IMG/VR virus record: IMGVR_UViG_3300028591_000078
Coordinates: 160,001 to 224,000 of that record
Source: a virus
Lineage: Duplodnaviria; Caudoviricetes
DNA: 64,000 nt
Reading direction: 5' to 3' (one strand)
A model generated the notes under the pieces. That model saw nothing but the letters and a program-made list of their open reading frames with translations, searched no databases and was not told where the DNA came from. Positions 5,069 through 50,531 of this stretch are shown here, in pieces; positions within the stretch are counted from its first letter, which is position 1, and each line of letters begins with the position of its first letter. Made by a program: the position numbers and the translations under genes.

Positions 5069-5476
5069 ATGCAGTTTGATAGAAAAGTAGTAGATAAGGT
5101 GCTGAGTCGAAAACGGACATTTGATATAATAACAGATAAAAGACTCTGCACTGATTCTGACTCAGTATGCCATACTGTTAAATTGGAGATCAATATAATA
5201 GCATATAAGAACAAAAAAGGTATTCTTGAAGATGTCATTGCTCATATATTGATATATCATGATAACTCTAAAAATGAAGTATGGCGTAAAGTTGAATTTG
5301 ACTCCCAAAAGGGGTCATTTTTGATCTATTTTACTAGACCGGATAGTTGGTCTGCCTTGACAAGCATCTATTATGATAAGGATGTAGTTATCGATAAGAT
5401 AAATAGCATTACCGGTAAAGAGTTCGAGGATGTAAACAAGGCTATTGTCGAGCTAATGCTAAGCTACAAAGATTAA
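5069..5476 (+). CDS. hypothetical protein, paralog family C (2 of 4)
   Basis: Same motifs. Confidence 0.75.
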   Translation: MQFDRKVVDKVLSRKRTFDIITDKRLCTDSDSVCHTVKLEINIIAYKNKKGILEDVIAHILIYHDNSKNEVWRKVEFDSQKGSFLIYFTRPDSWSALTSIYYDKDVVIDKINSITGKEFEDVNKAIVELMLSYKD

Positions 5477-5488
5477 AAAGGAGGTATT

Positions 5489-5884
5489 ATGGAACTTGAC
5501 AGAAAAGAAGTAGACAAGGTATTAAGGCTTAAAAGAACGTTTGACATCATAACAGATAGAAGACTCTGTATTGATTCTGATTTAATATCTCATGATGTCA
5601 AATTAAAAGTCAATATAAGATCCTATAAGAATAGCTATCACGATCTTATAATTGTTTCTAATGTTACAATACAATATGATTCTAAAAATCACGGTTTTAG
5701 TATTAAGCTTAATGCAGACAGAGGATCATTCTTGATCAATCTTACTTCGGCTACTTTGTCTACACCAGTAGGAATATTTTATGATGAGGATGTAGTTCTC
5801 GATAAGATGAATAGTTTTACTTATAAAAGATTTAATGATATAAATAAAGCTGTTGTTGATTTGATGATGAGCTATATCGAATAA
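5489..5884 (+). CDS. hypothetical protein, paralog family C (3 of 4)
   Basis: Same motifs. Confidence 0.75.
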   Translation: MELDRKEVDKVLRLKRTFDIITDRRLCIDSDLISHDVKLKVNIRSYKNSYHDLIIVSNVTIQYDSKNHGFSIKLNADRGSFLINLTSATLSTPVGIFYDEDVVLDKMNSFTYKRFNDINKAVVDLMMSYIE

Positions 5885-5898
5885 AATGGAGGTACAAT

Positions 5899-6315
5899 AT
5901 GGAACTTAGTAGAAAAACGGTAGATAAGGTATTGGGATTAAAAAAGACCTTTGATATCATAACAGATAAAAAACCAATTCGCCTAAAGTATGACGCCGAT
6001 TTGGTAAGTGATATCGAAGCTAAACTAAAGATCAGTATAGCATCTTATAAGAATACTGATGGTGATCTTATAATTATTACTATCGTCAAAATGTATTATG
6101 TAGATCATAGACTACTCTTTTTTAATATTAAGCTAAATGCAAATAATGGAGCATTTTTAATTGATCTTATTAGGCCCCGAAGGTATTGGTCTGGCCAGGA
6201 AGTAGTATTTTATGATAAAGATGATGTTCTTGATAAGATGAACTTTCTTACATCTCGGGAATTTGAAGATGTAAATAAAGCCATATTAGATCTGATGTCG
6301 AGCTACAAAGAATAA
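5899..6315 (+). CDS. hypothetical protein, paralog family C (4 of 4)
   Basis: Same motifs. Confidence 0.75.
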   Translation: MELSRKTVDKVLGLKKTFDIITDKKPIRLKYDADLVSDIEAKLKISIASYKNTDGDLIIITIVKMYYVDHRLLFFNIKLNANNGAFLIDLIRPRRYWSGQEVVFYDKDDVLDKMNFLTSREFEDVNKAILDLMSSYKE

Positions 6316-6351
6316 AATAATAAGGTAGGCGTAATGCCTACCTTATTTTTT
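6316..6351. terminator. bidirectional intrinsic terminator
   Basis: aataaggtaggc-gtaat-gcctaccttatt between convergent genes. Confidence 0.8.
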
Positions 6352-6357
6352 GTATAA

Positions 6358-32959: not shown

Positions 32960-33065
32960 TTTATCAACTCCTTTCATGACCACTATTATAATATATAATT
33001 GAAATCTTCTAGAGTTGCAAAAGACGTCCATGGCTATATTAGCCATGGACAATATATTGTATGTC

Positions 33066-35273: not shown

Positions 35274-35297
35274 AAAGTAACCTCTAGGCATTATAGC

Positions 35298-35720
35298 CTA
35301 GAGGTTATTCTCTGTTTTGTCGTTATATTGTGCTAAGAAGTCCATCTCACTACTGTAGATAAGGCCTAAGAGATCACTCATATCTTTTTTAGAAAGCATT
35401 TTGATTCTCTTTATATCAAACTCTTTCACAGAACACATATTATTTAGCATAAGTATAACGAAATATAATTCAGCATTACCGTATATATCTACAGCAAGGA
35501 GTTTAGGCTTATACTTATACTTCCAGAACTCCTGATCATTAAGCACCACTGTAGTAGATTTGCCTAATAATTCAAATAGGTAATCACTGACTACATTATA
35601 TATCGGAATCTTTATATCACCAGTTTCATCCAGCATACTTAAATTAGCATAAGATATAGTAACAGCACTACCAGCTTCGATAAACTGTTCCAAAGTAGAA
35701 GTACTTTTAAGACTTGCCAT
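35298..35720 (-). CDS. baseplate wedge-like protein (T4 gp53/LysM-like)
   Basis: PKLLAVDIYGNAELYFVILMLN motif. Confidence 0.55.
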   Translation of the reverse strand: MASLKSTSTLEQFIEAGSAVTISYANLSMLDETGDIKIPIYNVVSDYLFELLGKSTTVVLNDQEFWKYKYKPKLLAVDIYGNAELYFVILMLNNMCSVKEFDIKRIKMLSKKDMSDLLGLIYSSEMDFLAQYNDKTENNL

Positions 35721-36069: not shown

Positions 36070-36142
36070 TAATAATCACATCCTTGGAAACATAAATTTA
36101 ATAAATAGTTAAACCTATCTAAAATGATAGGTTGGAAAGGGT

Positions 36143-36908: not shown

Positions 36909-38111
36909 ATGGGTATCATATTAAACCCTGGACAAAAATATATAGTACAAGAAGCTAAGAAATGGTATCGTAGTGCTAATGAACAAGTCTTTCAGATACA
37001 AGGACCACCTGGAACTGGAAAGAGTGTTACATTAAATGCTATCATTGATGAGCTTAAATTAAATAGAGATCGTGTAGCCCCAATGTCATTCATTGGGGCT
37101 GCAGCAATTAATATGAGAGTAAAAGGTTTCTATAATGCTAAGACTATTCATTCATGGTTATATTGGCCTGTAGAAGAAGTCATGTTAGACGAAAATGGTA
37201 AACCTATAATAGATTCATACTTTAATAAGCCTAAGAAACATTTAGTCTTTGAACCTAAGCCTTTAGGAGATATAGATCTAATGGTTATAGATGAGGCTTA
37301 TGCTACTCCATTATCTCTTAAAAAAGATATAGAATGTAGGAATAAGCTTATATTAGCTGCAGGTGATAAAGATCAGTTATCCCCAGTGAAAGATGCTCCA
37401 GCATATCTTGTAGATGGTAGAATATACTATCTAGATGAGATAATGAGACAAGAAGAAGGATCTGCTATCATATATCTATCTCAGAGGATTAAACAAGGAT
37501 TACCAATACATTCCGGATACTATGGTAATGTATTAGTAATAGAGAATGAAGAGTTGAATGATGATATAATCTCACGAGCAGAAGTAATAATCTGTGGTAG
37601 AAATGAAACTAGGGATATGATGAATCATCATATACGACAAGATATTCTAAGAAAGACTTCTAGAGTACCAGAGTATGGTGAACGAATGGTATGTAGAAAG
37701 AATAATTTCCATCTAGAAGTAGATGGAATATCTTTGGCAAATGGATTAATGGGTAAAGTAACTTCCCATGTAGATCCAAGTACTTTCAATGGTAAGACTT
37801 ACACAATAGATTTCCAGCCAGATTTAATGGGTAGACCATTTCAAAGAGTACAATGTGATTATAATTATCTCTTAGCAAATAATGATCAACGACAAAAATT
37901 AAAGTTAGATAGGTTTTCACGAGGAGAGAAGTTTGAGTATGCTTATGCTATTACATCTCATATCTCTCAAGGAAGTGAATGGGATAAAGGTGTATATCTT
38001 GAAGAGCATTTAAATCCTAGCATGGATGCAAGGTTAGCATATGTAGGACTGACTCGTTTCAGAAAGTCTTGTATCTTTGTCAAGGCTAAACGTAGAAAAT
38101 ACTATATCTAA
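36909..38111 (+). CDS. Dda/RecD-like SF1B DNA helicase
   Basis: GPPGTGKS, IDEA, GDKDQL, IMRQ, YAITSHISQGSE and YVGLTR motifs. Confidence 0.9.
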   Translation: MGIILNPGQKYIVQEAKKWYRSANEQVFQIQGPPGTGKSVTLNAIIDELKLNRDRVAPMSFIGAAAINMRVKGFYNAKTIHSWLYWPVEEVMLDENGKPIIDSYFNKPKKHLVFEPKPLGDIDLMVIDEAYATPLSLKKDIECRNKLILAAGDKDQLSPVKDAPAYLVDGRIYYLDEIMRQEEGSAIIYLSQRIKQGLPIHSGYYGNVLVIENEELNDDIISRAEVIICGRNETRDMMNHHIRQDILRKTSRVPEYGERMVCRKNNFHLEVDGISLANGLMGKVTSHVDPSTFNGKTYTIDFQPDLMGRPFQRVQCDYNYLLANNDQRQKLKLDRFSRGEKFEYAYAITSHISQGSEWDKGVYLEEHLNPSMDARLAYVGLTRFRKSCIFVKAKRRKYYI

Positions 38112-38150
38112 CTTTATAGTAAAATAATTCTATAAGGAGGAATTTTTATC

Positions 38151-38606
38151 ATGGCCGAGGAAACAAAACCCGTGGTTGATATTAAGTCTTTTATACAGTT
38201 TGTAGATGGGACTGTTCTCAGAACACTTGCTGTATACAGTTATAAAGAATGGTTCAGCGGAGCAAATAGAGACGTATTTGAGATCCGTATGCCTGAAGAG
38301 GAAACCTCTTTTGAACAGATAAGGCAGATCGTCGACAAGGAGAACAATACTCAGCTTCTCATACTTATTGAAAGACATTATGATGAAGATGTAACTATCG
38401 TCAAGGAAAATAAGTTCCAGCATGGCTTCTATACACTGGTAATTGATAGTGGTATCAAATATATAGAAGACTTCGGTGAGTGCTTTGTTCTCAAGCTTGC
38501 TCAGATGACAAAGGAAGAACAGCAGGAATGGCTTACAGCTCTTGATATCGATGAACAGGGCGCTGCTATAGTAGAACTTGCTGACATCATTGCTAATATG
38601 CAGTAA
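38151..38606 (+). CDS. putative tail fibre chaperone, paralog of 1452..1958
   Basis: FxDGTxL, R[ED]V and C-terminal AIVELA motif shared; late promoter at 38110-38121. Confidence 0.55.
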   Translation: MAEETKPVVDIKSFIQFVDGTVLRTLAVYSYKEWFSGANRDVFEIRMPEEETSFEQIRQIVDKENNTQLLILIERHYDEDVTIVKENKFQHGFYTLVIDSGIKYIEDFGECFVLKLAQMTKEEQQEWLTALDIDEQGAAIVELADIIANMQ

Positions 38607-38610
38607 AACA

Positions 38611-38640
38611 ATAGTCCTAGGGAATTATCCCTAGGACTAT
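38611..38640. terminator. hairpin terminator (CCTAGG family)
   Basis: atagtcctaggga-atta-tccctaggactat. Confidence 0.7.
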
Positions 38641-38670
38641 ATTTTATATACCTATATTAAGGCAATATAT

Positions 38671-38756
38671 GACTGTGCTCGAAAATGAGCACAGTCTTTT
38701 AAATTATTTTCTACAACCTATATAACTTAAGTGTTTTACACTTAAGTTATATAGGT
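38671..38756 (+). promoter_or_regulatory. type-A cassette leader: 10-bp hairpin plus 19-bp palindrome with GTTTTAC centre
   Basis: gactgtgctc/gagcacagtc and acctatataacttaagtgt-ttt-acacttaagttatataggt. Confidence 0.75.
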
Positions 38757-38784
38757 GTAAAATTTTCGAAAGAAGGTTTGATAT

Positions 38785-39513
38785 ATGTCTTTATGGGTTA
38801 ATGAAAATGGAGTAATGAAAGAGATTACTGATGTAAATAAAAGCAATGCTATAAATATAGTAAAACTTGGAATAGATGATCTTGATGTAACTGCTGATCA
38901 GGTAAAAAACTATATTATAAATTGGACTGGTTGGAATAAGGCAGCTTTTAATGATGAATATAAAGGTGAATTACTAATTCCTATAAAAACGGTTAATATT
39001 GGATGTGCCCCTGAGCTTATAGGAATTAATTATACAAGAGAATATTTTTATCAAGATGATATAGATGATAGTAATGATTATTCAAGTTATGACCTTTTTA
39101 TATTATCTAATACAACAACTACGGTAACAAAAACAACTATAGAAAGAATCGGATATAGCTATGTAGAAAGAGGAGATTTTGGAATCTCTGTAGATCTTAA
39201 TATATTACGTCAAGGAAAGTATGCTAATCTTAAAGCAGAATATTCTTATAGCATGCCTTTTACAACAGAAACTAATCAGGTTTCTACAACACGCAATGGT
39301 CGAACTATTACATATAGACCGGTAATGACACCTATGAAGTGCGTTGTAATGCATTTATCTGGATCAAATCTTATATTCTATCAGTCAGCAAATATTTATT
39401 CATATGGCGGAGAACATGAAACTACTTCTGCACTTAGAAATAATCTTAGAGTTCAAGCTAGTTCGACTGGTGGTAAAGGTATAGCAATGTACACTATACC
39501 TATATTACATTAA
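38785..39513 (+). CDS. variable tip cassette protein 1 (putative receptor-binding adhesin)
   Basis: MSLWVNENG N-terminus; body related to 46283..46972. Confidence 0.7.
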   Translation: MSLWVNENGVMKEITDVNKSNAINIVKLGIDDLDVTADQVKNYIINWTGWNKAAFNDEYKGELLIPIKTVNIGCAPELIGINYTREYFYQDDIDDSNDYSSYDLFILSNTTTTVTKTTIERIGYSYVERGDFGISVDLNILRQGKYANLKAEYSYSMPFTTETNQVSTTRNGRTITYRPVMTPMKCVVMHLSGSNLIFYQSANIYSYGGEHETTSALRNNLRVQASSTGGKGIAMYTIPILH

Positions 39514-39602
39514 GTAAATATTTCCAATTAATCTATGTATAACTTTATAATACTCTTGTACATATAGTCTTAGATGACTATATGTATAGGAGGTTATTAT
39601 AT

Positions 39603-39875
39603 ATGTCTAATAATAAGCAACCATTTTTATTTGACATAGATTCTGGAAATATTGGGGTAGGAGAAGATACTCCAATTATACAATTTAAGCATCCACCAAA
39701 GATTGTAGTATTATATCTATATGATACAAGAAGTATTTATAATCCTATGAAAGTTATAACTCTTCATCAAGATACTTCTAAACACATCTTTGGTACTAAC
39801 TATGTAGAACTACAAGGAAAATATCTAATATTTAATATGAGTACCGATGGTTTCTCATGGCTAGCATTTTTCTAA
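39603..39875 (+). CDS. tip-like domain lacking the conserved N-terminal peptide
   Basis: PKIVVLY similar to PKFxxxFY/PKAFVVAY of cassettes; own plain late promoter at 39541-39552. Confidence 0.5.
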   Translation: MSNNKQPFLFDIDSGNIGVGEDTPIIQFKHPPKIVVLYLYDTRSIYNPMKVITLHQDTSKHIFGTNYVELQGKYLIFNMSTDGFSWLAFF

Positions 39876-39879
39876 AACT

Positions 39880-39909
39880 AATCCCTAGGGTATTAATACC
39901 CTAGGGATT
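39880..39909. terminator. perfect 30-bp palindrome / bidirectional terminator
   Basis: aatccctagggtatt-aataccctagggatt. Confidence 0.75.
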
Positions 39910-39916
39910 TATTGTT

Positions 39917-40345
39917 TTAATAGAAGATGATTAGTTCACCATCTTCATATTTATAACTACTGCTACCATACGTTGTAGAATCGGATCCATTTGAAATTTC
40001 AATAGATAATTTTTTAGTTGAATCATTATAGGAATATTTATAATGATATCGTCCAGTACTACCATTATTATTATTTATTCCTACAAAGCTACCACTAGAC
40101 CCTGAACTAGTATCTATGTTTAATCTGTCAACTCCATCACTATTAATACCAGAAGAACTTGGTTCTGTATATCTATAAAAACACATACAAAATTTTGGAG
40201 CGCTAGGAAGATCAACAGTTTTATTTAATGAACCAGTACTGGTTGATGCTTTAAAAGATTTTATTCCTGTTAATCCAGAACCAGCAGCAAGATATTCATC
40301 AGTTAAACTAGTTACAGTACCATCTTCATTAGCATATATTGCCAT
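39917..40345 (-). CDS. variable tip cassette protein 2
   Basis: MAIYANEDG; body related to 40930..41337. Confidence 0.7.
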   Translation of the reverse strand: MAIYANEDGTVTSLTDEYLAAGSGLTGIKSFKASTSTGSLNKTVDLPSAPKFCMCFYRYTEPSSSGINSDGVDRLNIDTSSGSSGSFVGINNNNGSTGRYHYKYSYNDSTKKLSIEISNGSDSTTYGSSSYKYEDGELIIFY

Positions 40346-40393
40346 AATAAGCCTCCTTATGAATGTAAATAAATTTTATTCCTATTTATTTTG

Positions 40394-40423
40394 CTAAACT
40401 TAAAAGTAAACTTTTAAGTTTAG
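40394..40423 (-). promoter_or_regulatory. type-B leader palindrome
   Basis: ctaaacttaaaagt-aa-acttttaagtttag; identical copies at 41386 and 47019, inverted copy at 48960. Confidence 0.8.
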
Positions 40424-40505
40424 TCGAAAATTAAAAATTACATACTCACATGCTGCCTAAGTATATGAGTGGTAAAAATTTTTGATCAAATTAATTTTTA
40501 AATGA

Positions 40506-40534
40506 CTAAACTTTCAGTTTTACTGAAAGTTTAG
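40506..40534 (+). promoter_or_regulatory. type-C leader palindrome
   Basis: ctaaactttcagt-ttt-actgaaagtttag. Confidence 0.75.
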
Positions 40535-40557
40535 GAAAGAAAGAGAAATGCATTTTT

Positions 40558-40890
40558 ATGGCTGTATATGCTAATGAAGATGGTACTATTAAAAATCTGA
40601 CTGATATAACTAATACTGGTTTTACAAAAATTACAATGGGAATTATAGGTTCTAAGGGTACTATATCAAAAAATGTTGGTTTTACTATAAAACATTGTTT
40701 ATTTATTGGAATTAGAGAAAGTGGCGGAGACAGTTATCCTGAAATACAGTCTAATACATTTGCGGTTGATAGTGGATCTATATATGTAGGAGGATATGAT
40801 TACGCAAATGTATCATTTTCTGGAACTACTATTTCCTATAGTAATAATGGTAGTAGCAACAGAAATGTTGTTTATATAGCATTTGGATAA
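40558..40890 (+). CDS. variable tip cassette protein 3
   Basis: MAVYANEDG; ends in YIAFG. Confidence 0.7.
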   Translation: MAVYANEDGTIKNLTDITNTGFTKITMGIIGSKGTISKNVGFTIKHCLFIGIRESGGDSYPEIQSNTFAVDSGSIYVGGYDYANVSFSGTTISYSNNGSSNRNVVYIAFG

Positions 40891-40895
40891 ATAAA

Positions 40896-40922
40896 ATCCC
40901 TAGGGTAAAATACCCTAGGGAT
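40896..40922. terminator. bidirectional terminator, near-identical to 39880
   Basis: atccctagggta-aaa-taccctagggat. Confidence 0.75.
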
Positions 40923-40929
40923 ATTTATT

Positions 40930-41337
40930 TTAATAAAAGACTATCATTAGACAATCCTCATATTTTCTATCTTCTGAAGTTTGATTGGTACCAGCGTGTC
41001 CATTATTTATACTAATTACTAGCTGTTTTGTTGATTCTATATAATTATAGGTATATAAATAACTGTTTGGTATACTTCCATTTGAATCAAATTTACCAAC
41101 CCAATGGCCACTTAGATTAACAGAATATCCTAGATATGAGTGATATTCAAGGCCACCAGCAGTACCACTTATAAGTTTATTATATGTATAAAAACATAAA
41201 ACAAATTTTGGCTTGCTATCAAGCGTTATAGTAGTCGATTTAGTAAAAGCTTTTATTCCTGTTAGCCCAGAATCAACAGCAAGATATTCACCAGTTAAAT
41301 CAGATATAGTACCATCTTCATTAGCGTATATAGCCAT
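40930..41337 (-). CDS. variable tip cassette protein 4
   Basis: MAIYANEDG. Confidence 0.7.
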   Translation of the reverse strand: MAIYANEDGTISDLTGEYLAVDSGLTGIKAFTKSTTITLDSKPKFVLCFYTYNKLISGTAGGLEYHSYLGYSVNLSGHWVGKFDSNGSIPNSYLYTYNYIESTKQLVISINNGHAGTNQTSEDRKYEDCLMIVFY

Positions 41338-41385
41338 AGTAAACCTCCTTATGAATGTATTTTATTTTTATTCCTATTTATTTTG

Positions 41386-41415
41386 CTAAACTTAAAAGTA
41401 AACTTTTAAGTTTAG
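41386..41415 (-). promoter_or_regulatory. type-B leader palindrome
   Basis: Identical to 40394-40423. Confidence 0.8.
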
Positions 41416-41522
41416 TTGCTTGTAAAATTTTACATATGGCCATACTGCCTAAGTATAAGAATGATTAAAATTCTATATTTGATTAAATAATAAAGCCGTA
41501 GGGAAATTCCCTACGGCTAATT

Positions 41523-42107
41523 TTATTCATCATCGTATACACTAGAAAGTTCTTTTCCAATATCTGTAACTCCAGCTTCATCATTAGATATCTGCTCTGT
41601 TGCTTCCTCATCTTCATTAAATGATTTTGCTGCCCATTCAGATATACCAATATCTTTAGTATCTTGGACGAATTCATCTTTACGAGTATATACTTTTATA
41701 GCATCAAGTACATATTGATCGAGCTTCATAGCATCTATGAGTTTTAATATATTAGGACTCAATCCATACTCTGACCCACATTCAAATAAACGCTCTTTAG
41801 CAACTCCAAGTATTGCCAGATAATACTCATCTTCAGTATTGAAATCACGTCTATTTAAAGATGCTATCTTGATTGCATCCTGTGCTACCTGATCAATCTG
41901 TTCGAGAATAAGTGTAAGATAGTCATCTACATCCATAGTGACTTCAGATTTTGCAGACTTCTTTCTACGAATCTCTAAGATCAACATAGCAAGATTTACC
42001 ATTACAAGTACTACTACTGCTACTATAAGTAAAACACTAGTAGCCTCATTCTCAGGTGTCATTACCTCGGGATGAGATTCTGCACTAAGTAAAATAGTAT
42101 TCATCAT
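41523..42107 (-). CDS. single-TM membrane protein
   Basis: Hydrophobic helix followed by RRKK; acidic C-terminus. Confidence 0.6.
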   Translation of the reverse strand: MMNTILLSAESHPEVMTPENEATSVLLIVAVVVLVMVNLAMLILEIRRKKSAKSEVTMDVDDYLTLILEQIDQVAQDAIKIASLNRRDFNTEDEYYLAILGVAKERLFECGSEYGLSPNILKLIDAMKLDQYVLDAIKVYTRKDEFVQDTKDIGISEWAAKSFNEDEEATEQISNDEAGVTDIGKELSSVYDDE

Positions 42108-42124
42108 CTTAAACCCTCCTCTTA

Positions 42125-43777
42125 TTAGCATACATAGTTATTATTCGTATTATTATTAGCAACAATTCCAGACAGTCCTTTACCTCTTAAGAGGTTATTG
42201 CTGAAAATGTTGTTCTGGCCATTTACATATATTGTATACTCATCATCTTTGTAGTCTTTAGGATCACCATTTCCACGGACTATAGTATTATATGCAAAAA
42301 TATTGTATTTCGGTACTACATCTGTAGAACCCTGAGCAGCATTCAGCAGAGCGATACCAATCTTGCAATTAATAAGATGATTATTCTCTATCTTATTATA
42401 CTGAGTATTAGAGTAGAAAGATGCTACATAGATACCAAGATTACAATCTATGGCTTTAGAGAATACTATAGAGTTTGTATAGCAAGGAGTATTGACATCA
42501 GATATTATCCAGAAGCCATACTTACAATTCTTAGCAGTACAGTTCTCTATAATATTATTATCTCCAGTAATCTTGATACCATGTCTACACTCTACAGTAA
42601 CATTCTCGATTCTATTATTGTTACCATGTACACATATATTACCCCAAGGACGTTCAATAGGACCAATAAGTCCCATAGAAGATATACTGAGATTTCTAAG
42701 AGTTATTCCAGAACCCTTGATATCAAATACATACTGCTCAGTCTTCTTATCAAACATATCCATATGTATAGAGTTGGTAATCTTAACACCAGATTCACCT
42801 ACTATTTCAACATCGTTTCTATTGATAATAATAGGCTTTCTGGTAGTATATGAATTATATGCTTTAAGAAGAACTATCTTTCTAGCATTCACATTATTGA
42901 GCAGCTTGGCAAATACTTCATGAAGAGAATCATCCTGTCCAACAACGAAGTCTGCACCTGTATATTCAGGACCTATAGTATATACCTTAGGTTCGAGTCT
43001 TACTATCGGAACTTTAGTATCTCTATATACTAACTGATTACCCTCAAACTGAATAGCTTCGAGTTTCATCAGCATTTCAGGAGACATAAGTCCAGACTTA
43101 TAATAGGTTACAAGGTTATTATCAGCCTTACTATCCCAAGATGAAATCTGCTCATCAGATACATGACGGATATTCTCATTAGAAGGATGGATATAATTAT
43201 TAGCATTATAGTCTATAGACTTAAGCTTATCATAGTCCTTTGCTGTAATAAGACCATCGATCTCACTAGTAGCAAGAGGATAAGTGAACATCTTTAAAGC
43301 TACCCACTTACCAGCAGTGTAACGATATCCTATGCCTTCATCATTTACTGGCACAAACCAGCCCTCTTCTATATTACTAAGACCAGAATACTTCTGTTTA
43401 AATTCTTCAGTATTCTTTACTGCTGGCTGCCATTTCATACCCATAGTAGCAGCTGCAATTTTATTATCAGTTTCACTACGAGTATACTTATCAAAGATCT
43501 TAGATCTTTCTTCTTTAGTAATATGAATAATAGCGTTATTAGTATGGGATCTAAGCTCAGATCTTACAAGGTCTGCTTTAGCCTTAGAGCCCTTAACAGA
43601 CTCTTTATTATTCCATTCATCAGTCTTCTCTTTAGTAAGATGAATATTCTGATTAGTTATATGAGCGAGCATTCTCTCATATATTATAGGATCAACAGAG
43701 ACATTCTCCTGAGTAATATTAGTAGTAGTTTCTTCTGCCTTAGAAGAATTGTCTGATATAATTCCAATCGGTTTCAA
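42125..43777 (-). CDS. tail spike with pectin-lyase-like beta-helix (putative depolymerase)
   Basis: N-terminal HITxEE..W/GLMS fibre motifs; C-terminal GxNNxIEN beta-helix repeats. Confidence 0.7.
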   Translation of the reverse strand: MKPIGIISDNSSKAEETTTNITQENVSVDPIIYERMLAHITNQNIHLTKEKTDEWNNKESVKGSKAKADLVRSELRSHTNNAIIHITKEERSKIFDKYTRSETDNKIAAATMGMKWQPAVKNTEEFKQKYSGLSNIEEGWFVPVNDEGIGYRYTAGKWVALKMFTYPLATSEIDGLITAKDYDKLKSIDYNANNYIHPSNENIRHVSDEQISSWDSKADNNLVTYYKSGLMSPEMLMKLEAIQFEGNQLVYRDTKVPIVRLEPKVYTIGPEYTGADFVVGQDDSLHEVFAKLLNNVNARKIVLLKAYNSYTTRKPIIINRNDVEIVGESGVKITNSIHMDMFDKKTEQYVFDIKGSGITLRNLSISSMGLIGPIERPWGNICVHGNNNRIENVTVECRHGIKITGDNNIIENCTAKNCKYGFWIISDVNTPCYTNSIVFSKAIDCNLGIYVASFYSNTQYNKIENNHLINCKIGIALLNAAQGSTDVVPKYNIFAYNTIVRGNGDPKDYKDDEYTIYVNGQNNIFSNNLLRGKGLSGIVANNNTNNNYVC

Positions 43778-43836
43778 TTGAAGTCCTCCCTTCAAAATTT
43801 GGTGGTCGGGATAGATATCTATCCCGACCGATTTAT

Positions 43837-45054
43837 TTAAAGATCTTCAGGATGGATCTCAGCATCATAAGAGTATCCATGAGGATGCATTGCAGTTGTA
43901 GGAACATGACGCATTGCAGGTCTAAGATCATGATGGTCAAGATCCCATCTGTCCTTAGATATCTGGTAATATCTCATACACTTAAGAGATTCCAAGCAAG
44001 GATCAGGTACAGTAAACAGCGATGCAGATGTACCAGCTTCAAGCTTGATATATTCTATAGTAGCATCTGCTTCAGAAGAAGCCATAAGTCCTACATAGTA
44101 ATTATCTACAGGCTCAGCGATATTGAATGTATACATATTCAGACCACTAGCACCACAGAGCTTAGTACCATTGGTAGCAGTAAGCAGATAGATATTAGCA
44201 CTACCAGTAAGCTTAGCAGAAAGTGTATAGTTTCCAGCAGGAAGATGCTCTATGTACTGTACTATATTACCACCAGTAGCAAATCTTACTCTGATAGGAT
44301 TGGACAGATAGAGTCCAGTATCATCAGCAAATATCTTACAACCATTAGTATACCATCTATCAACAGTATAACCAGTGATATCATAAGATACTTCTTCTCT
44401 CTGATTTATATAGAAAGAAGGATTGATAAGTATATTAGGTTTAGATGTAGACTGATCATAGGTAGCAGAACCACCTTCAGATTCTGTATTACATCTTACA
44501 AGTTCGAGTGCAGGATCAGGATCTACATACATAGTACCATTTTCACCATGCTCGATCTTTACATACTGAAGAATTATATCTTCACCAGAGTACACTCTGA
44601 TAACGAACTCATTGGTTACAGTATTATATACTATTCTAGGACCAATCTGAGTTACCTGTTCCTGATAGAAATAGCTATTATTGGTAGCATCTCTAATAAA
44701 TGCATCCCATGTAGCTTCATATCCAACAGTCTTACAAGAGATAGAAAAGAGACTTCCTACCTCTATATTTCTAGTAAGCTTCTGAGATATATTAATATAA
44801 GCATCAGAAGTACCACTTACTCTTACTCTGAGACCCTGTTCTACAGGATTTATCTCAAAAGATACATCAGGAGACTGAGAGCTTGTAACAGTCCAGTTAT
44901 TTACACATGATTTATTGAATTCTGTATAAGAATCTTTACCCGAAGTATTGATCTTAAAGTTTGAATTGATCAAAAGATTGGGGTTGCATATAGTATTAGG
45001 CGAGACGATTCTGGCATTTCCAGCAATCATGTTGCTTCCAATTGCAAGAGACAT
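43837..45054 (-). CDS. tail protein with two carbohydrate-binding-like modules
   Basis: Duplicated PNLLINxxFxIN..YxKxExG..PDP..E..C module typical of phage tail fibre CBM domains. Confidence 0.65.
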   Translation of the reverse strand: MSLAIGSNMIAGNARIVSPNTICNPNLLINSNFKINTSGKDSYTEFNKSCVNNWTVTSSQSPDVSFEINPVEQGLRVRVSGTSDAYINISQKLTRNIEVGSLFSISCKTVGYEATWDAFIRDATNNSYFYQEQVTQIGPRIVYNTVTNEFVIRVYSGEDIILQYVKIEHGENGTMYVDPDPALELVRCNTESEGGSATYDQSTSKPNILINPSFYINQREEVSYDITGYTVDRWYTNGCKIFADDTGLYLSNPIRVRFATGGNIVQYIEHLPAGNYTLSAKLTGSANIYLLTATNGTKLCGASGLNMYTFNIAEPVDNYYVGLMASSEADATIEYIKLEAGTSASLFTVPDPCLESLKCMRYYQISKDRWDLDHHDLRPAMRHVPTTAMHPHGYSYDAEIHPEDL

Positions 45055-45141
45055 ATAGGATTTCCTCCTTTTGAATTGATATTTAATATAAAGTTAAGAG
45101 AAGCAATATTAAACCCTACCCATATGGGTAGGGTTAATGTA

Positions 45142-46176
45142 TTAGGTATGAGTTCCATACAGGTATCCAGCAGGACAAGTTGTAGTATCTGCAGCTCTAG
45201 TACCAAATCCTATATTTCTTAAACAGCTAAGATAATAGTAGCTATCACCAGTAGAAGTCTTATGATTCTCAGTTGTTTCAGCAAGACTACTTGCATAGTT
45301 TGCATTTATTGCATTTAATGCAGAGCCACCAGCAGAATCTGATCCGGCATAATTATGTGTATGGGACTTAGGAGCATAAGCAGTGTCATGGTTATGAGTA
45401 GCAATAGCAAAGTATGAATCAGGTCTATATGCCGCGCTATCTATAGCATGAACCTTTATATTCTGAACAGAACCATTTATAGTAAACTGTATATTACCAT
45501 TTATAGAGCTTTCAGCAGCACTTGTAACACCAGTATTAGTGATTGTAGATCCAGTTACATTTATACCAGTACCACCAGTATATGCAGTACCAGCAGGCAG
45601 AGGTGCAGTTGCAGTATGATCATCACCATATGTATATACAATATTACCGTTTTCGACATTGATAGACTTTACATATGTACCCTTGATATTATTACCGCTC
45701 TGATCAGCAATAGCCTTATCAGCAGTACCATGAATATTACCAGTAAATCCATACTGCGATCCAATGCTACCATCATCACATACATAGAGATGTCCTATAA
45801 CAGCGCCATCGTGAAAGTATATATGCTTAGCGATATGAGTTTCACCCTGATCATTTATAAGGGCAATACCAGTTTCACCAGTATCAGAGATCTTATATCC
45901 ATTGATTGAATCTGCATTCAGATCAGGCATAGAATCTACAGTAGTTTTCAACCATTCTTTATCTACAGATATAGTACCAGTAGATGCGATATAGATTATA
46001 CCTTCACCGGCCTTAATAGATGATCCACTACCAGGATCTACATAGTCATCATATATATAATATACTGTCTTGGTGTTATGATTAATCTCACCAGTACTAA
46101 TCTTCAAAAGCCATTCGGATTTCTTTATTGGAACAGGCTCATTATTACGATTTTTAAGTCCGTTTATTACAGGCAT
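45142..46176 (-). CDS. short tail fibre protein
   Basis: Shares HNHDxAYAPKSHTHNYAGSxSAGG and the C-terminal LRxxxxGTxAAxTTxCPxGxxYGxH motif with the giant fibre. Confidence 0.7.
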   Translation of the reverse strand: MPVINGLKNRNNEPVPIKKSEWLLKISTGEINHNTKTVYYIYDDYVDPGSGSSIKAGEGIIYIASTGTISVDKEWLKTTVDSMPDLNADSINGYKISDTGETGIALINDQGETHIAKHIYFHDGAVIGHLYVCDDGSIGSQYGFTGNIHGTADKAIADQSGNNIKGTYVKSINVENGNIVYTYGDDHTATAPLPAGTAYTGGTGINVTGSTITNTGVTSAAESSINGNIQFTINGSVQNIKVHAIDSAAYRPDSYFAIATHNHDTAYAPKSHTHNYAGSDSAGGSALNAINANYASSLAETTENHKTSTGDSYYYLSCLRNIGFGTRAADTTTCPAGYLYGTHT

Positions 46177-46250
46177 TGAATACTCCTCCTTTTATAAAGT
46201 GTATTTTAATATAAAGTTAATACTCTCCAAATAGCTAGTGATAGAAGAAT

Positions 46251-46278
46251 TACCCATGTACCAATTGGTACATGGGTA
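46251..46278. terminator. perfect 28-bp palindrome / terminator
   Basis: tacccatgtaccaa-ttggtacatgggta. Confidence 0.7.
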
Positions 46279-46282
46279 TATA

Positions 46283-46972
46283 TTAATCATCAAAAGTAAG
46301 AATATTGAATACTCTAACTTTATCATTACCTGGATATACAGATATATTTGATTTGGCTTGAGATTTTGTAACACTACTATTTAACTGAAAAGCTTGTGAT
46401 ATAATAAAATTATTACCACTAAGAGTATATAGCATTACATTACTGTCAACTCCTCTAAATCCTGGTTTATATGGATATATAATGTATTGTGATTGCCCAG
46501 AACCTATTTGAATCGGAGCTCCACTTAATTCGAGCATAGCCCACGAATAACCAGTATTATTGGAATAATAACTTTGACCTTGTTTTAACTTATACCATGA
46601 CTGGGAACTAATAAGTTCATTTTGAAAACTATAAATAGTATTAGTACTTGTGGCTGTCAAACTTGTATATACTTCATCTGTATAAGTAGTTGCATCAGCA
46701 TCTGGATCATCACTTCGAAAATTTAAAGCAATATAAGAAGGTGTACATCCAAGATCTATAGTCTTTATTGGAATTACAAAATTTTCCATATTTGCATATG
46801 TTGATGTAGGAGTTTTAGTTCCCCATCTAGGATAATTATTAATTATAGTGCTTCTAAATTCAGCAGGACTCATATCACAAGTATCGCTAGTAATTTTAAA
46901 AGTTTGAAAGAACTTGGCACTTGCTTTACTAAGATCTTTAATACTACCATTCTCATTAACATATACTGCCAT
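46283..46972 (-). CDS. variable tip cassette protein 5
   Basis: True start MAVYVNENG after GAGGTG. Confidence 0.7.
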   Translation of the reverse strand: MAVYVNENGSIKDLSKASAKFFQTFKITSDTCDMSPAEFRSTIINNYPRWGTKTPTSTYANMENFVIPIKTIDLGCTPSYIALNFRSDDPDADATTYTDEVYTSLTATSTNTIYSFQNELISSQSWYKLKQGQSYYSNNTGYSWAMLELSGAPIQIGSGQSQYIIYPYKPGFRGVDSNVMLYTLSGNNFIISQAFQLNSSVTKSQAKSNISVYPGNDKVRVFNILTFDD

Positions 46973-47018
46973 ACTAAGGCACCTCACGTTCATTAAATTT
47001 TTATTCCTATTTATTTTG

Positions 47019-47048
47019 CTAAACTTAAAAGTAAACTTTTAAGTTTAG
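47019..47048 (-). promoter_or_regulatory. type-B leader palindrome
   Basis: Identical to 40394-40423. Confidence 0.8.
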
Positions 47049-47091
47049 TCGAAAATTAAAAATTACATACGGCCATAGCGAGGCAATATAT

Positions 47092-47220
47092 GATCATACC
47101 CATTTTAGGGTATGATCTTTGAAATATTTTTCTATAACCTATATAACTTATTGGTTTTACCAATAAGTTATATAGGTTTAAATCGTGTAAAACACTTAAG
47201 TTATATAGGTGTAAAATTTT
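47092..47220 (+). promoter_or_regulatory. type-A leader (covariant hairpins plus extra flipped half-palindrome)
   Basis: gatcataccc/gggtatgatc; aacctatataacttattggt-ttt-accaataagttatataggtt; gtgtaaaacacttaagttatataggt. Confidence 0.75.
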
Positions 47221-47237
47221 GAAGGAAGGTTTGATAT

Positions 47238-47990
47238 ATGTCTTTATGGGTTAATGAAAATGGTACTATGAAAGAAATTGCTACAGATAAGGATAGTACT
47301 GGTGCATATAAATGTACTAGAGATCTTGTATACTGTAAATGGTCATATAACAATGTAGCACGAGAAGGATATCAAGGATATCAGGGTATTACTGCTGCTA
47401 CATTAGGATTAACAAAAACTATATTAGTTGATAAAAAGACTGGTTCTGGTCAGAGTGGATCTTATTCATATCCATCTCGTGATATAAGTATAAAAGATCT
47501 TGATGAAAGTTATAAAAAGACTATTTATACTGGAACATTTCCTCGTAATATGTGTCCAAATGCAGCAATGGTATCACAAATCAGAACTGATACACTAATC
47601 AGTTCTGATACTGGTTTGGTTTTAAAACAATATTTTATTAGTAATACTGCTGAATTTGATAAGTTTTTAGAAGTTGGTGATTCTTTTAGTAGTATTGTTG
47701 GATGCGGATACCCAATTGCAGATGATTATAGTAATAATGCCTCTAAATCTAGTGACCCTAGAAATTGGTCGTCAAAAGTTGAACTGAGAGCTATGGGAGA
47801 ATGCTTAGATGGTATTAATTATAGATTCTATGTAGTACTAGCTAGAACTTCTGACATTACAGAACAGGCAGCTTTAACTACAAAACTGTATTCTTATCAT
47901 AGATTAAATTCTCCAGGATTTGATTATAAATGGATTGGTACTTATTTAATTCAACATATACCATCATACACTGAATATACTATAGAATAA
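47238..47990 (+). CDS. variable tip cassette protein 6
   Basis: MSLWVNENG; body unrelated to cassette 1. Confidence 0.7.
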   Translation: MSLWVNENGTMKEIATDKDSTGAYKCTRDLVYCKWSYNNVAREGYQGYQGITAATLGLTKTILVDKKTGSGQSGSYSYPSRDISIKDLDESYKKTIYTGTFPRNMCPNAAMVSQIRTDTLISSDTGLVLKQYFISNTAEFDKFLEVGDSFSSIVGCGYPIADDYSNNASKSSDPRNWSSKVELRAMGECLDGINYRFYVVLARTSDITEQAALTTKLYSYHRLNSPGFDYKWIGTYLIQHIPSYTEYTIE

Positions 47991-47996
47991 TATAAA

Positions 47997-48021
47997 ACCC
48001 GTGTACCATTGGTACACGGGT
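47997..48021. terminator. terminator, covariant copy of 46251 palindrome
   Basis: acccgtgtacca-t-tggtacacgggt. Confidence 0.7.
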
Positions 48022-48053
48022 ATATTATTTTATTGAAAGCTCATTACGTTACC

Positions 48054-48371
48054 TTAATTGTATGCCTTTGTCTGTAAGTATATGATCTCATAGCCATATT
48101 CTTTTGCACAGATGTGTTCTATATTACATCCACGTGCAGTATTATATCCATCTACAAATGCAACGACATCTGCATTAGACATAAGCTTGAGACTGTCTGC
48201 AAGATACCATAATGGCTTAGCATCTACAGGAGCATCCTTGAAGAAACTATCGATGATTTCTATCTCTTCTTCTCTATATCTTTCCTTTATTTCCTTGATT
48301 GCCTCTTCTCGTGTAGCAAGAATCTGCTCATCTGAGAGACTTCTCATCGGCTGAGAGATAAATACCTTCAT
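48054..48371 (-). CDS. DUF4406-like (nucleoside deoxyribosyltransferase-fold) protein
   Basis: MKVFISQPM..ADVVAF..ARGCNIEH motif. Confidence 0.7.
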   Translation of the reverse strand: MKVFISQPMRSLSDEQILATREEAIKEIKERYREEEIEIIDSFFKDAPVDAKPLWYLADSLKLMSNADVVAFVDGYNTARGCNIEHICAKEYGYEIIYLQTKAYN

Positions 48372-48425
48372 AACTATATCATCCTTTCTTTTGAATATAT
48401 TATATAGTTATTGAGGATTTGCCTT

Positions 48426-48830
48426 TTAATACACTACAAATACACCATACTTTATTGAACTGTCACTTTTTACAATTAGTGTTGTTGCATTATTTGTATC
48501 TTTTGCTAAGTTAATATATGCTCCACCTCTACCAGCATTAACACTATAGTTCCAACCTATATTTCTACTAGTAATTTCCTCACCATTATAAGTAGTAAAT
48601 ACCATATCTTCAACTTTTATTATTACTGGAACTCTTACTGTAGTTTCTGTCTCCACATGGAGAGGTATAAGTACTATATATTTATAATTAGTATAATTAG
48701 GTATACTAACAGAATCATCCGTTGTTCTAGTACCAAAATATTTGATACCATTTATTACAAATCCATTACTATAATCTGTTTTTTCAGTTAAGTTTTTTAA
48801 AGTTCCATTTTCATTTGCATAAATAGCCAT
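48426..48830 (-). CDS. variable tip cassette protein 7
   Basis: MAIYANENG; DYxxGFVINGIKY subfamily. Confidence 0.7.
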   Translation of the reverse strand: MAIYANENGTLKNLTEKTDYSNGFVINGIKYFGTRTTDDSVSIPNYTNYKYIVLIPLHVETETTVRVPVIIKVEDMVFTTYNGEEITSRNIGWNYSVNAGRGGAYINLAKDTNNATTLIVKSDSSIKYGVFVVY

Positions 48831-48845
48831 AAAATCAAAATCCTC

Positions 48846-48877
48846 CTAAACTTTTCAAGTAAACTTGAAAAGTTTAG
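48846..48877 (-). promoter_or_regulatory. type-C leader palindrome
   Basis: ctaaacttttcaagt-aa-acttgaaaagtttag. Confidence 0.75.
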
Positions 48878-48959
48878 TCATTTAAAAATTAATTTGATCA
48901 AAAATTTTGGCTATTCATATACGGCCACAATGTGGTCGTATGTAATTTTTAATTTTTGA

Positions 48960-48989
48960 CTAAACTTAAAAGTTTACTTTTAAGTTTAG
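48960..48989 (+). promoter_or_regulatory. type-B leader palindrome (inverted copy)
   Basis: ctaaacttaaaagt-tt-acttttaagtttag. Confidence 0.8.
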
Positions 48990-49037
48990 CAAAATAAATA
49001 GGAATAAAAATTATTTACGATCATAAGGAGGCTTACT

Positions 49038-49493
49038 ATGGCCGTATATGTTAATGAGAATGGTACAGTGCAAACGTTAGCTACAGATGGCGAACCATTA
49101 AACATGTCAGTTCAACATTATACAGCAAAATTTATTTATGCATATGCTCAGAGTAATCCATGGCGTGGATCTGGCTTTGAAGACCAAAGTTTTACTTTAC
49201 CATTTACTCCAAAAGCTTTTGTTGTAGCTTATGATAATGCAAAAATGCCAGTAGAACACGCTGACAGTACAAACAGTCATCGTATTATAACATCAAGAGA
49301 TATTGCAATAGGTGATAACTCAATAGATATAACTGCCTCTTTTACCACTAACCATAAAAGCGTTTATTATCATTATTTTAAAATTAATGGTAATACAGTC
49401 ACTATACCAAAGACTACATATACTAGTTTTGCTCTTCCTTCGGTAGCATCTCACACTTTCATAATAAATTTTGATGTAATCTTTTTCTATTAA
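49038..49493 (+). CDS. variable tip cassette protein 8
   Basis: MAVYVNENG. Confidence 0.7.
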   Translation: MAVYVNENGTVQTLATDGEPLNMSVQHYTAKFIYAYAQSNPWRGSGFEDQSFTLPFTPKAFVVAYDNAKMPVEHADSTNSHRIITSRDIAIGDNSIDITASFTTNHKSVYYHYFKINGNTVTIPKTTYTSFALPSVASHTFIINFDVIFFY

Positions 49494-49531
49494 ACAAAAT
49501 TTACCCACAGGGAAAACCCTGTGGGTATTTA

Positions 49532-49966
49532 TTATGTAAGTCCGAATACAAGATACTTAGGATAATAGTTTGCACCATTGTCATGAAACTTAATATTTAA
49601 TCCAGTAGAATTTATTAGAGTTGCTTTTATTATTAATCCACCTCTACCAGCAGAACCACTATAGGCCCATCCAACAGATCTAGTAGTTGCTCCATTAAGG
49701 CCTCCAGAAGTTTGAAAAGTTAAAGGTGTTTCTAATATAAACATTCCACAAGAAAGTCGCATGCTTGCGGTAGGATCATCAGGCTGTATAGGAAGTCCTA
49801 TGATATATTTATATCCTGTATAATTAGCAATATCAATTCCGACTTCAGTACTAGCATGCTCTACAGTACCAAGATACTTGATACCATTGATTACAAAACC
49901 ATCACCATAGTCAGTCTTGTTGGTCAGTTCTTTCATTACACTGTTTTCATTAGCATAAATCGCCAT
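49532..49966 (-). CDS. variable tip cassette protein 9
   Basis: True start MAIYANENS; body related to 48426..48830. Confidence 0.7.
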   Translation of the reverse strand: MAIYANENSVMKELTNKTDYGDGFVINGIKYLGTVEHASTEVGIDIANYTGYKYIIGLPIQPDDPTASMRLSCGMFILETPLTFQTSGGLNGATTRSVGWAYSGSAGRGGLIIKATLINSTGLNIKFHDNGANYYPKYLVFGLT

Positions 49967-49991
49967 AACTCTTAAATCTCCCATATATAAA

Positions 49992-50074
49992 ATTTTCAGT
50001 TTTATGGCTTAAGAATTATTACTAAGAACTTCTTAGTAATAATTCTTAAGGTGAATTATGATAAAACTGAAAAT
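49992..50074. promoter_or_regulatory. type-D shared leader: 21-1-21 palindrome inside 14-bp outer inverted repeat
   Basis: cttaagaattattactaagaa-c-ttcttagtaataattcttaag (50008-50050); attttcagttttat/ataaaactgaaaat. Confidence 0.75.
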
Positions 50075-50096
50075 AAAATCATAGAAGGTTTTATTT

Positions 50097-50531
50097 ATGG
50101 CAGTATATGCAAATGAAAATGGCAATATTAAGGAATTAACTAGTAAGGTAGACCTTGGTAATGGCTTTGTTATAAACGGTATAGAATACTTAGGAGAATA
50201 TCTTCCTTCTCAAAGAGATGGAACTTTTACTTTACCAAAACCATATACAAGCTATAAGTATTTAGTTGTGTATGATTTCTATGGTAAGAAAAATAATGGA
50301 GAAGCTAGCTGGACTAATGTAAAACAGCATTCATGCCTAGAATTTATAGATACATCACTGATTAATCCAAGTGATAGATACACATATGATGGATATATGG
50401 TTGGAGGGGATGATCCAACTACAAGTAACAAATTATGCTGTATTATTGAATTTGGTAATACTACGACATTAAGTATAGACTGTGGAAATTATTATAGTTA
50501 TAATAGTATAAAATTTTTCGGTATATACTAA
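50097..50531 (+). CDS. variable tip cassette protein 10
   Basis: MAVYANENG; GFVINGIEY subfamily. Confidence 0.7.
   Translation: MAVYANENGNIKELTSKVDLGNGFVINGIEYLGEYLPSQRDGTFTLPKPYTSYKYLVVYDFYGKKNNGEASWTNVKQHSCLEFIDTSLINPSDRYTYDGYMVGGDDPTTSNKLCCIIEFGNTTTLSIDCGNYYSYNSIKFFGIY

Follow-up and report, generated by a model that had tools for sequence, protein, structure and literature searches.

Palindromic gene leaders of an AR9-like jumbo phage match late promoters and carry short cores that invert among relatives

Perfect AT-rich palindromes accompany a family of ten paralogous genes, referred to here as cassette genes, in a tailed virus (Duplodnaviria; Caudoviricetes). The family lies in a 64,000-nucleotide stretch (the window), which corresponds to bases 160001–224000 of the 238,365-bp virus record IMGVR_UViG_3300028591_000078 from IMG/VR; the record is 97% complete. 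Judged from their sequence, the palindromes named B, A1, A2, and E are very probably mirror-symmetric late promoters of the type described for phage AR9, with a direction set by a core of one to three bases. In close relatives, the core is found inverted at several of these sites with arms and flanks unchanged. The best explanation overall, which we hold with somewhat better than even confidence, is that core-oriented mirror promoters are flipped by template switching and act between paralogous genes.

A scan for perfect palindromes (arms of at least 13 bases and a spacer of three bases or fewer) detected nine AT-rich leader palindromes. Eight of these had been listed with perfect arms in an initial annotation of the window, and all eight were confirmed at their coordinates; the ninth, E, is located at 50008–50050. 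A1 (38716–38756) has arms of 19 bases and a three-base centre that reads TTT on the strand of gene 38785, and A2 (47136–47178) has arms of 20 bases, also with a three-base centre. B consists of 14-base arms around two central bases and is present in four identical copies at 40394–40423 (pair 1), 41386–41415 (pair 2), 47019–47048 (pair 3), and 48960–48989 (pair 4). C (40506–40534; 13 + 3 + 13) reads TTT on the gene strand in this genome, D (48846–48877; 15 + 2 + 15) abuts the ribosome-binding site of gene 48426–48830(−), and E (21 + 1 + 21) has a single central C on the plus strand. The whole genome contains 16 perfect palindromes at the same scan settings, and 12 of them, the nine leaders and three terminators, fall within the 11.5-kb cassette stretch. 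Ten genomes simulated with a first-order Markov model yielded 0–1 such palindromes each, and the excess in this genome is far beyond chance.

The leader palindromes represent six distinct sequences, all of them perfect. C and D have the outer arms and the centre in common with B and differ from it in the inner arms. Differences between types, indels included, are always mirrored in the opposite arm. The compensatory arm changes that had been reported between A1 and A2, and among B, C, and D, were thereby confirmed, and neither a G-T pair nor a mismatch was found in the 102 distinct stem pairs of the arms. The tetranucleotide AACT is present in each arm of all nine palindromes. Folded as RNA, the palindromes are very stable, with energies of −12 to −25 kcal/mol.

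When the sequences upstream of all 224 called genes were searched by expectation maximisation, the motif that emerged was AAC[A/T]-N6-T-A-A, typically 41–48 nt before the ATG. There are 136 copies of AAC[AT]-N6-TAA in the genome; 78 are intergenic and 61 lie 25–90 nt upstream of a start on the same strand. The spacing is strict, as other spacers yield just 3–14 sites upstream of same-strand starts, compared with 61 for N6. Besides the cassette palindromes, the motif precedes approximately 60 other genes. The late promoter of the AR9 non-virion polymerase is 5'-A(−11)ACA-(6N)-U A/G(+1), and this enzyme reads the template strand (PMC5449584, PMC7598289, PMC9209446). Substitutions at −11 to −8 abolish transcription in AR9 and those at +1 strongly reduce it, while −1 matters less (PMC5449584, PMC9209446).

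By consensus and spacing, the motif found here matches an AR9-type late promoter, with AAC[A/T] at −11 to −8, six bases, T at −1, and a purine at +1. Both phages encode a split beta/beta', and the beta' here is nearest to the AR9/PBS1/phiR1-37 group. In addition, the positions essential in AR9 (−11 to −8 and +1) are those occupied by the palindrome cores in this genome. The two systems differ in that −8 is A or T here, and in two new features, a conserved A at +2 and a second arm in mirror image; palindromic promoters are not mentioned in PMC5449584, PMC9209446, or PMC7598289. No named motif had been recognised in the initial annotation, but B, A1, A2, and E match the AR9-type late promoter on one strand (PMC5449584).

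A weight matrix derived from the upstream regions of this genome itself was used to place the palindromes on the promoter. All four copies of B, together with A1, A2, and E, fit the AACT/AACA-N6 late promoter on one strand only. B scores 17.6 opposite to the strand of the adjacent gene and 9.2 on the gene strand; ten sites genome-wide reach 17, and four of those are B. E scores 14.0 on the plus strand (AACT-N6-TAA) compared with 8.9 on the minus strand, where the motif begins AAG. On the minus strand, A1 offers both AACT-N6-TAA (9.7) and AACA-N6-TTA (11.5), and A2 offers AACT-N6-TAA (11.1). For B, A1, and A2, the arm ends with T(−1) and the core takes up +1/+2(+3), where AA(A) is the consensus start and TT(T) is not. 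The core of E is a single base, the C at −9. All of the asymmetry thus lies on bases that the promoter requires, which argues that the core sets direction. Predicted starts on the plus strand are 40408 (B pair 1), 41400 (B pair 2), 47033 (B pair 3), and 50038 (E), the last of which is 59 nt upstream of the ATG at 50097. Those on the minus strand are 48975 (B pair 4), 38737 (A1), and 47158 (A2).

The initial annotation had described the centre as a GTTT(T)AC of fixed orientation relative to the adjacent gene. In this genome, that is true of all eight palindromes that it lists, although they amount to fewer than eight independent cases (B is one sequence repeated four times, and A1/A2 and C/D are paralogous pairs). 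The orientation is not fixed among relatives, where the centre flips at E, two B sites, and C. The centre would correspond to the promoter start site or the −9 base. A gene-strand GTTT(T)AC places T(−1)A(+1)A(+2) on the opposite strand, so the promoter would be directed away from the adjacent gene. The B pair 1 promoter (+) is accordingly directed away from 39917–40345(−) and towards 40558(+), and the pair 2 promoter (+) faces the terminator at 41494–41518. The promoter of pair 3 (+) is directed away from 46283–46972(−) and towards 47238, and that of pair 4 (−) away from 49038(+) and towards 48426–48830(−). After an in-silico core flip, B scores 16.0 towards the adjacent gene with a leader of 62–64 nt, similar to the 59 nt of E.

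C and D fit the promoter poorly. The three centre bases of C fall on −1, +1, and +2, which leaves either A at −1 or a five-base spacer, and D misses the promoter register by one base on either strand. With D also abutting a ribosome-binding site, these two may be RNA hairpins or decayed copies. Alternative spacers were tried and rejected: N7 (D) is at background, and N5 (C) is slightly above it (13 vs. 3–8). At 47185–47210(+), the right arm of A1 recurs as a half-palindrome with its core inverted. Its plus strand carries AACA-N6-TTA (11.5) 36 nt upstream of the ATG at 47238, and it would be a fossil copy locked towards gene 47238. Two other readings of the centre were discarded. If GTTTAC were the −35 hexamer of a sigma-70 promoter, C and D would leave just 27–37 nt to the ATG, and sigma-70-like matches show no enrichment (58 vs. 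71.7 in shuffles). As for another promoter class, intergenic copies of GTTT(T)AC outside the cassettes have no consistent position.

Relatives syntenic with the window were obtained by a profile search of ENA and Logan metagenome contigs. Strain 2 comprises contigs from about a dozen samples that are mutually at least 99.8% identical, and a more distant contig, L126, is about 92% identical to the window. Strain-2 leaders are identical base for base apart from the palindrome centres, and arms and flanks are unchanged. The centre of E is C in five samples and G in five, counting the window and L126. At B pair 1, beside a gene of 126 amino acids, the centre is TT in five samples and AA in two, and at B pair 4, beside a gene of 151 amino acids, it is TT in two and AA in two. 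At C, the window alone has TTT, and all eight strain-2 samples have AAA. For a single run, ERR2027900, the ENA assembly (L139) has C at E and the Logan assembly (L148) has G. No flips were seen at A1, A2, D, or B pairs 2 and 3 in 3–10 samples each; A1 is in the same state in six samples, and B pair 2 is unflipped in six.

Variation in strain 2 is concentrated in the cores. Across 53 kb of aligned sequence, 5 of 20 core positions are variable, compared with 44 of 20,361 other positions (Fisher p = 1e-9). Among these near-identical contigs, flips are confined to E and two B sites, and terminators show none. The E allele and single-nucleotide polymorphism (SNP) 972, which lies 690 bp away, were found in every one of the four possible combinations, a sign of recurrence or recombination. 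Between the window and L126, none of the 146 palindrome columns differs, compared with 50 of 445 columns in the remaining leader (p = 3e-7).

The exchanges seen (AA/TT, AAA/TTT, and C/G) are exact reverse complements with the arms kept. They most likely arise by replication template switching between the perfect arms. Template switching is documented to make the two arms of a short inverted repeat identical and to invert the spacer between them in a reversible manner (PMC8604942, PMC8794818). In yeast SPO75, for example, AA and TT are exchanged between arms of 11 bp (PMC8604942); spacer inversion has also been described in ribosomal RNA and microRNA hairpins (PMC8794818), and chloroplast minute inversions are a further case (PMC12371153). 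The likeness to the present leaders is close: the arms are perfect over at least 11 bp, a spacer of 1–5 bp is reverse-complemented with the arms unchanged, and the process is reversible, recurrent, and recombinase-free, with mismatches between arms erased. Elsewhere the outcome is a neutral or protein-coding mutation, whereas here a promoter start or −9 base between divergent paralogues is affected. A search of the 97%-complete genome for serine or tyrosine recombinases gave no PF00239 or PF00589 match at E ≤ 0.1.

The loops of several ordinary G+C-rich terminator hairpins are also swapped for their reverse complement in L126 and/or another relative, L127, with the stems being the same (window 33026–33050, 35278–35307, 38611–38640, 41494–41518, and 47997–48021). 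Loop inversion is a general property of perfect hairpins in this phage lineage. Together, perfect Watson–Crick arms without G-U pairs, mirrored indels, and flipped terminator loops argue for homogenisation of the arms at the DNA level by template switching. Perfect pairing free of G-U and indels matched between the arms would follow from this process, with no need to invoke selection on RNA folding. The proposal that structure is under selection therefore stands in part: the palindromes are constrained, as their conservation relative to the rest of the leader indicates, but selection on the RNA fold is not required.

In the model proposed here, the palindromes would be a mirror-symmetric form of the AR9-type late promoter, A(−11)AC[A/T]-N6-T(−1)A(+1)A(+2). 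Both arms bear the −11 element, and the polymerase could in principle dock either way. An asymmetry of 1–3 bp in the core, located on required promoter bases, would set the direction of transcription. B would fire across the intergenic region towards the other divergent gene, or into a terminator. The core would now and then be inverted without a recombinase, via template switching, which would also keep the arms identical and so give rise to the apparent covariation. A flip would shift a strong promoter between divergent paralogues, and the toggles seen flipped are E, B pair 1, and B pair 4. The flips could affect expression and may serve an adaptive use for tail-tip proteins. That they are used as a switch between the divergent paralogues at these three sites is a reasonable possibility, for which our confidence falls a little short of even. 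Slightly more tentative is the full proposal, in which flip-flop would occur at a useful rate, at least three toggles would choose between tail-tip paralogues, the result would be combinatorial host-range bet-hedging, and the core would be the smallest invertible element known.

Several observations weigh against this model. All eight palindromes considered in the initial annotation face away from the adjacent gene, an arrangement not predicted by the switch hypothesis. The away state deprives genes 38785, 39917, 40930, 49038, and 49532 of a consensus promoter, and it gives leaders of 145–205 nt to the far gene, compared with the usual 26–33 nt. C and D, two of the eight palindromes, remain below a matrix score of 6 in either core state, and D shows no flip among 10 samples. 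The L126 homologue of gene 48426 has D upstream and no B. Each of the B flips is compatible with one ancestral event, and the flipped contigs have linked SNPs in common. Terminator loops flip too, so flipping by itself is no proof of a programmed switch. The start sites and the strand preference are predictions from the weight matrix and from homology to AR9. Finally, a tail-tip role of the cassette proteins is only weakly suggested by their position and by low-scoring fold matches.

A competing explanation is that the late promoters are real and that template switching at AT-rich inverted repeats created and maintains their symmetry, with core flips being occasional mutations sorted by drift or host-range selection rather than a switch operating at a useful rate. 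The inverted terminator loops of other strains and the B flips with linked SNPs, possibly single events, agree with it, and so does the unflipped state of A1, A2, D, and two B sites in 3–10 samples. The literature also treats such inversions as mutations (PMC8604942, PMC8794818, PMC12371153). However, none of about 80 other motif promoters is a perfect palindrome. Beyond the cassette region, late-motif sites scoring at least 9 are never part of a perfect palindrome with arms of at least 13 bases, and a few overlap short palindromes of 8–11 bp (e.g., genome 187569–187590). Moreover, two different registers, the start in B and A and the −9 C in E, both put the asymmetry on an essential base, and the palindromes are conserved well above their flanks (0/146 vs. 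50/445). Contigs with at least 99.8% identity flip at E and two B sites only and at no terminator, and the two states of E are split 5:5, differ between the assemblies of a single run, and do not sort with a SNP close by. We regard a by-product origin as unlikely. Selection for pairing itself, with the palindromes acting as RNA leader hairpins (for stability, processing, or translation control) or as protein-bound cruciforms, is less probable again. The folding energies of −12 to −25 kcal/mol would suit an RNA hairpin, as would the conservation of the palindromes and the location of C and D directly before the ribosome-binding site and off the promoter register; transcripts from a far promoter would include the whole hairpin. 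Conversely, G-U pairs and mismatches are absent from all 102 stem pairs and are present in neighbouring terminators, and loop orientation varies among relatives. The sequences of B, A1, A2, and E line up exactly with a top-scoring promoter, and a transcript that starts from the centre has one arm only. The arm sequence itself is conserved beyond pairing. Rfam 15 contained no match to the palindromes, and the region 38500–50200 gave only sub-threshold chance matches to microRNA-like models.

Dyad symmetry also raises the question of DNA-binding proteins. Operators for a dimeric regulator of the cassette family would be sited before every family member, and B, C, and D have common outer half-sites, CTAAACTT / AAGTTTAG. 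The distance between these half-sites varies, however (13, 14, and 16 bp), which would place them on different helical faces, and the arms of A1/A2 and E are unrelated save for AACTT. Arms of 19–21 bp far exceed what an operator needs, and the shared AACT is the −11 element of the promoter, so that operators seem very unlikely. A marginally lower probability is given to hix/gix-like crossover sites (half-sites of 12–14 bp and a 2-bp core) for an invertase that shuffles the cassettes. The 14/15-2-14/15 layout of B and D with an AA/TT core resembles such sites, the four B copies are present in both orientations, and one contig, L165, shows an inversion between two B copies. Against this, the genome has no serine or tyrosine recombinase gene, the cores are not uniform (1, 2, or 3 bp, with arms of 13–21 bp), and the commonest change is a flip of the core only with the flanks kept, which a two-site crossover cannot give. 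The breakpoints of a rearrangement in L126 are not at palindromes, and the L165 junction lies within an identical repeat of at least 53 bp, for which homologous exchange is enough.

Bacterial invertons, such as E. coli fimS, Salmonella hin, and the Bacteroides capsule promoters, are segments of about 180–1000 bp that are inverted by a serine or tyrosine recombinase. The leaders described here resemble them in that a promoter lies between inverted repeats, both orientations are present in natural populations, and the choice of the surface or host-interaction gene to be expressed would follow from the orientation. They differ in that 1–3 bp invert, the repeats are the promoter itself, and a recombinase gene was not found in the 97%-complete genome. 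In phages, the Gin/G segment of Mu, Cin of P1, and Min of p15B swap a coding C-terminus behind a fixed promoter by site-specific recombination. Like these systems, the cassettes would provide tail-fibre-related alternatives with a constant N-terminus and variable bodies, arranged head to head near tail-fibre genes. In contrast, whole genes keep their own leaders here, and the direction of the promoter would change.

If the cores set direction, the leaders would represent phase variation at its minimum, with a promoter that is its own inverted repeat combined with template switching, a mutational process common to all replicating genomes, and with neither a recombinase nor an invertible segment required. 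Promoters read via a short −11 element and a start site, as by AR9-type polymerases, could then be made direction-switchable by 1–3 bases. This would also provide a testable route by which uncultured jumbo phages vary putative receptor-binding proteins. Compensatory covariation in perfect hairpins need not signal selection on an RNA fold. In addition, micro-inversions are hidden by consensus assemblies, and two assemblies of one run differ at the E base.

The cassettes are organised in the order terminator, palindrome, ribosome-binding site, gene, and terminator. Because a terminator acting in the direction of the adjacent gene is located just upstream of the palindrome, that gene would depend on the palindrome as a promoter, and the order suggests that the palindrome is meant to supply one. 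On the adjacent-gene strand, the terminator-like hairpins read as a G+C-containing stem (−16 to −18 kcal/mol) and then a T run. In the A1 leader, hairpin 2 (38671–38696, +) has a 10-bp stem followed by TTTT, was flagged by a terminator scan, and is predicted to shield the A1 cassette from upstream transcription. Its counterpart in the A2 leader (47092–47117, +) was unflagged in the scan and is terminator-like by analogy; most stem positions differ from those of 38671–38696, all of them compensated, and the loop is nearly the reverse complement. The initial annotation had pointed out extensive covariation in this second hairpin. The compensated changes are indeed present, but by its stem and T run the hairpin appears to be an ordinary intrinsic terminator.

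A third hairpin is found in two of the B leaders. In that of pair 1 (40436–40466, −), a T-rich run comes after the stem when read on the strand of the gene next to B, and one compensated pair change was found in strain 2. That of pair 4 (48917–48943, +) is terminator-like towards 49038, was flagged by the terminator scan, and contains a G-T wobble; it carries two to three compensated pair changes in strain 2.

The ten cassette genes extend from 38785 to 50531 of the window. Their first approximately nine residues are alike, reading MA(V/I)Y(A/V)NENG or MSLWVNENG, and their bodies are otherwise unrelated. They comprise 38785–39513(+), with the A1 leader; 39917–40345(−), beside B pair 1; 40558–40890(+), beside C; 40930–41337(−), beside B pair 2; 46283–46972(−), beside B pair 3; 47238–47990(+), with the A2 leader; 48426–48830(−), beside D; 49038–49493(+), beside B pair 4; 49532–49966(−); and 50097–50531(+), beside E. 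The family surrounds a tail-fibre operon on the minus strand, 41523–46176(−), in which 43837–45054 is matched by phrog_4492. Searches of PHROGs and Pfam with the cassette proteins returned nothing informative, and leads from the ESM Atlas were weak. An AlphaFold model of one cassette protein had a predicted local distance difference test (pLDDT) score of 68, and its fold matches reached a template modelling (TM) score of about 0.5 or less. These weak matches were to receptor-binding and baseplate proteins, namely phage K gp144, T4 gp9, and the phi812 baseplate.

A peptide-pattern search of IMG/VR did not recover the cassette protein family. The exact B pattern had no match in IMG/VR and JGI metagenome contigs, and a loose pattern gave chance matches only. 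No GenBank phage matched the region by megablast. The genome encodes the beta (PF00562) and beta' (PF00623) pieces of a split multisubunit RNA polymerase, and sigma-70 region 2 had no match in it. The beta' piece most resembles its counterparts in phiR1-37, AR9, and PBS1, with 30–32% identity, and the genome is that of a jumbo phage of the AR9/PBS1/phiR1-37 kind.

Other changes were observed among the relatives. Comparison of L126 3600–5150 with window 46290–49946 revealed that L126 is without homologues of 46283, 47238, and 49038, and that its block corresponding to 47965–48920 is inverted relative to the flanks, with breakpoints that are not at palindromes. At the position of 49532, L126 has the same N-terminal codons followed by a different gene body. 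In L165 (ERZ28614353), positions 483–700 join the B of the 151-amino-acid gene to the inner flank (hairpin 2 side) of B pair 3; this junction corresponds to an inversion of about 1.9 kb between two inverted B copies, which re-pairs the cassettes. L123 (ERZ28614409) has a 20-bp deletion (L127 coordinates 11662–11681) that takes out part of the terminator upstream of the A1 leader. L128 (ERZ28614206) carries 17 SNPs clustered in one tail-fibre gene (L127 coordinates 5439–7045), which have the look of a recombined patch.

Ordinary, non-palindromic late promoters are also present in this part of the genome. One of these, 45080–45099(−), precedes the tail-fibre gene 43837–45054, and others are located at 46203–46222(−), 38106–38125(+), and 39537–39556(+). 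At window 36085–36114, two late-promoter matches on opposite strands (14.6 and 9.6) overlap between divergent genes. This pair is only a quasi-palindrome, its predicted starts are one base apart, and it appears to be a natural two-way arrangement. A second genome-wide motif, (a/t)tttcaat-TATATATTAT-aatagtGa, lies approximately 37–90 nt upstream of many genes, for instance at window 53440(+), 32997(−), and 26254(+), and is probably the early promoter of the virion polymerase. This early-type motif (TATATATTAT followed by aatagtG) was absent from the cassette leaders.

Two further features of the window lie away from the cassettes. A 2852-amino-acid open reading frame (ORF) at 6358–14916(−) has marginal Pfam matches only. 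The Rfam hit that the window does contain is a group I intron (RF00028, 62 bits) at 59394–59706, between ORFs 57863–59452 and 59700–60506. ORF 57863–59452 carries GyrB/Toprim domains, and the intron host is probably a split topoisomerase gene.

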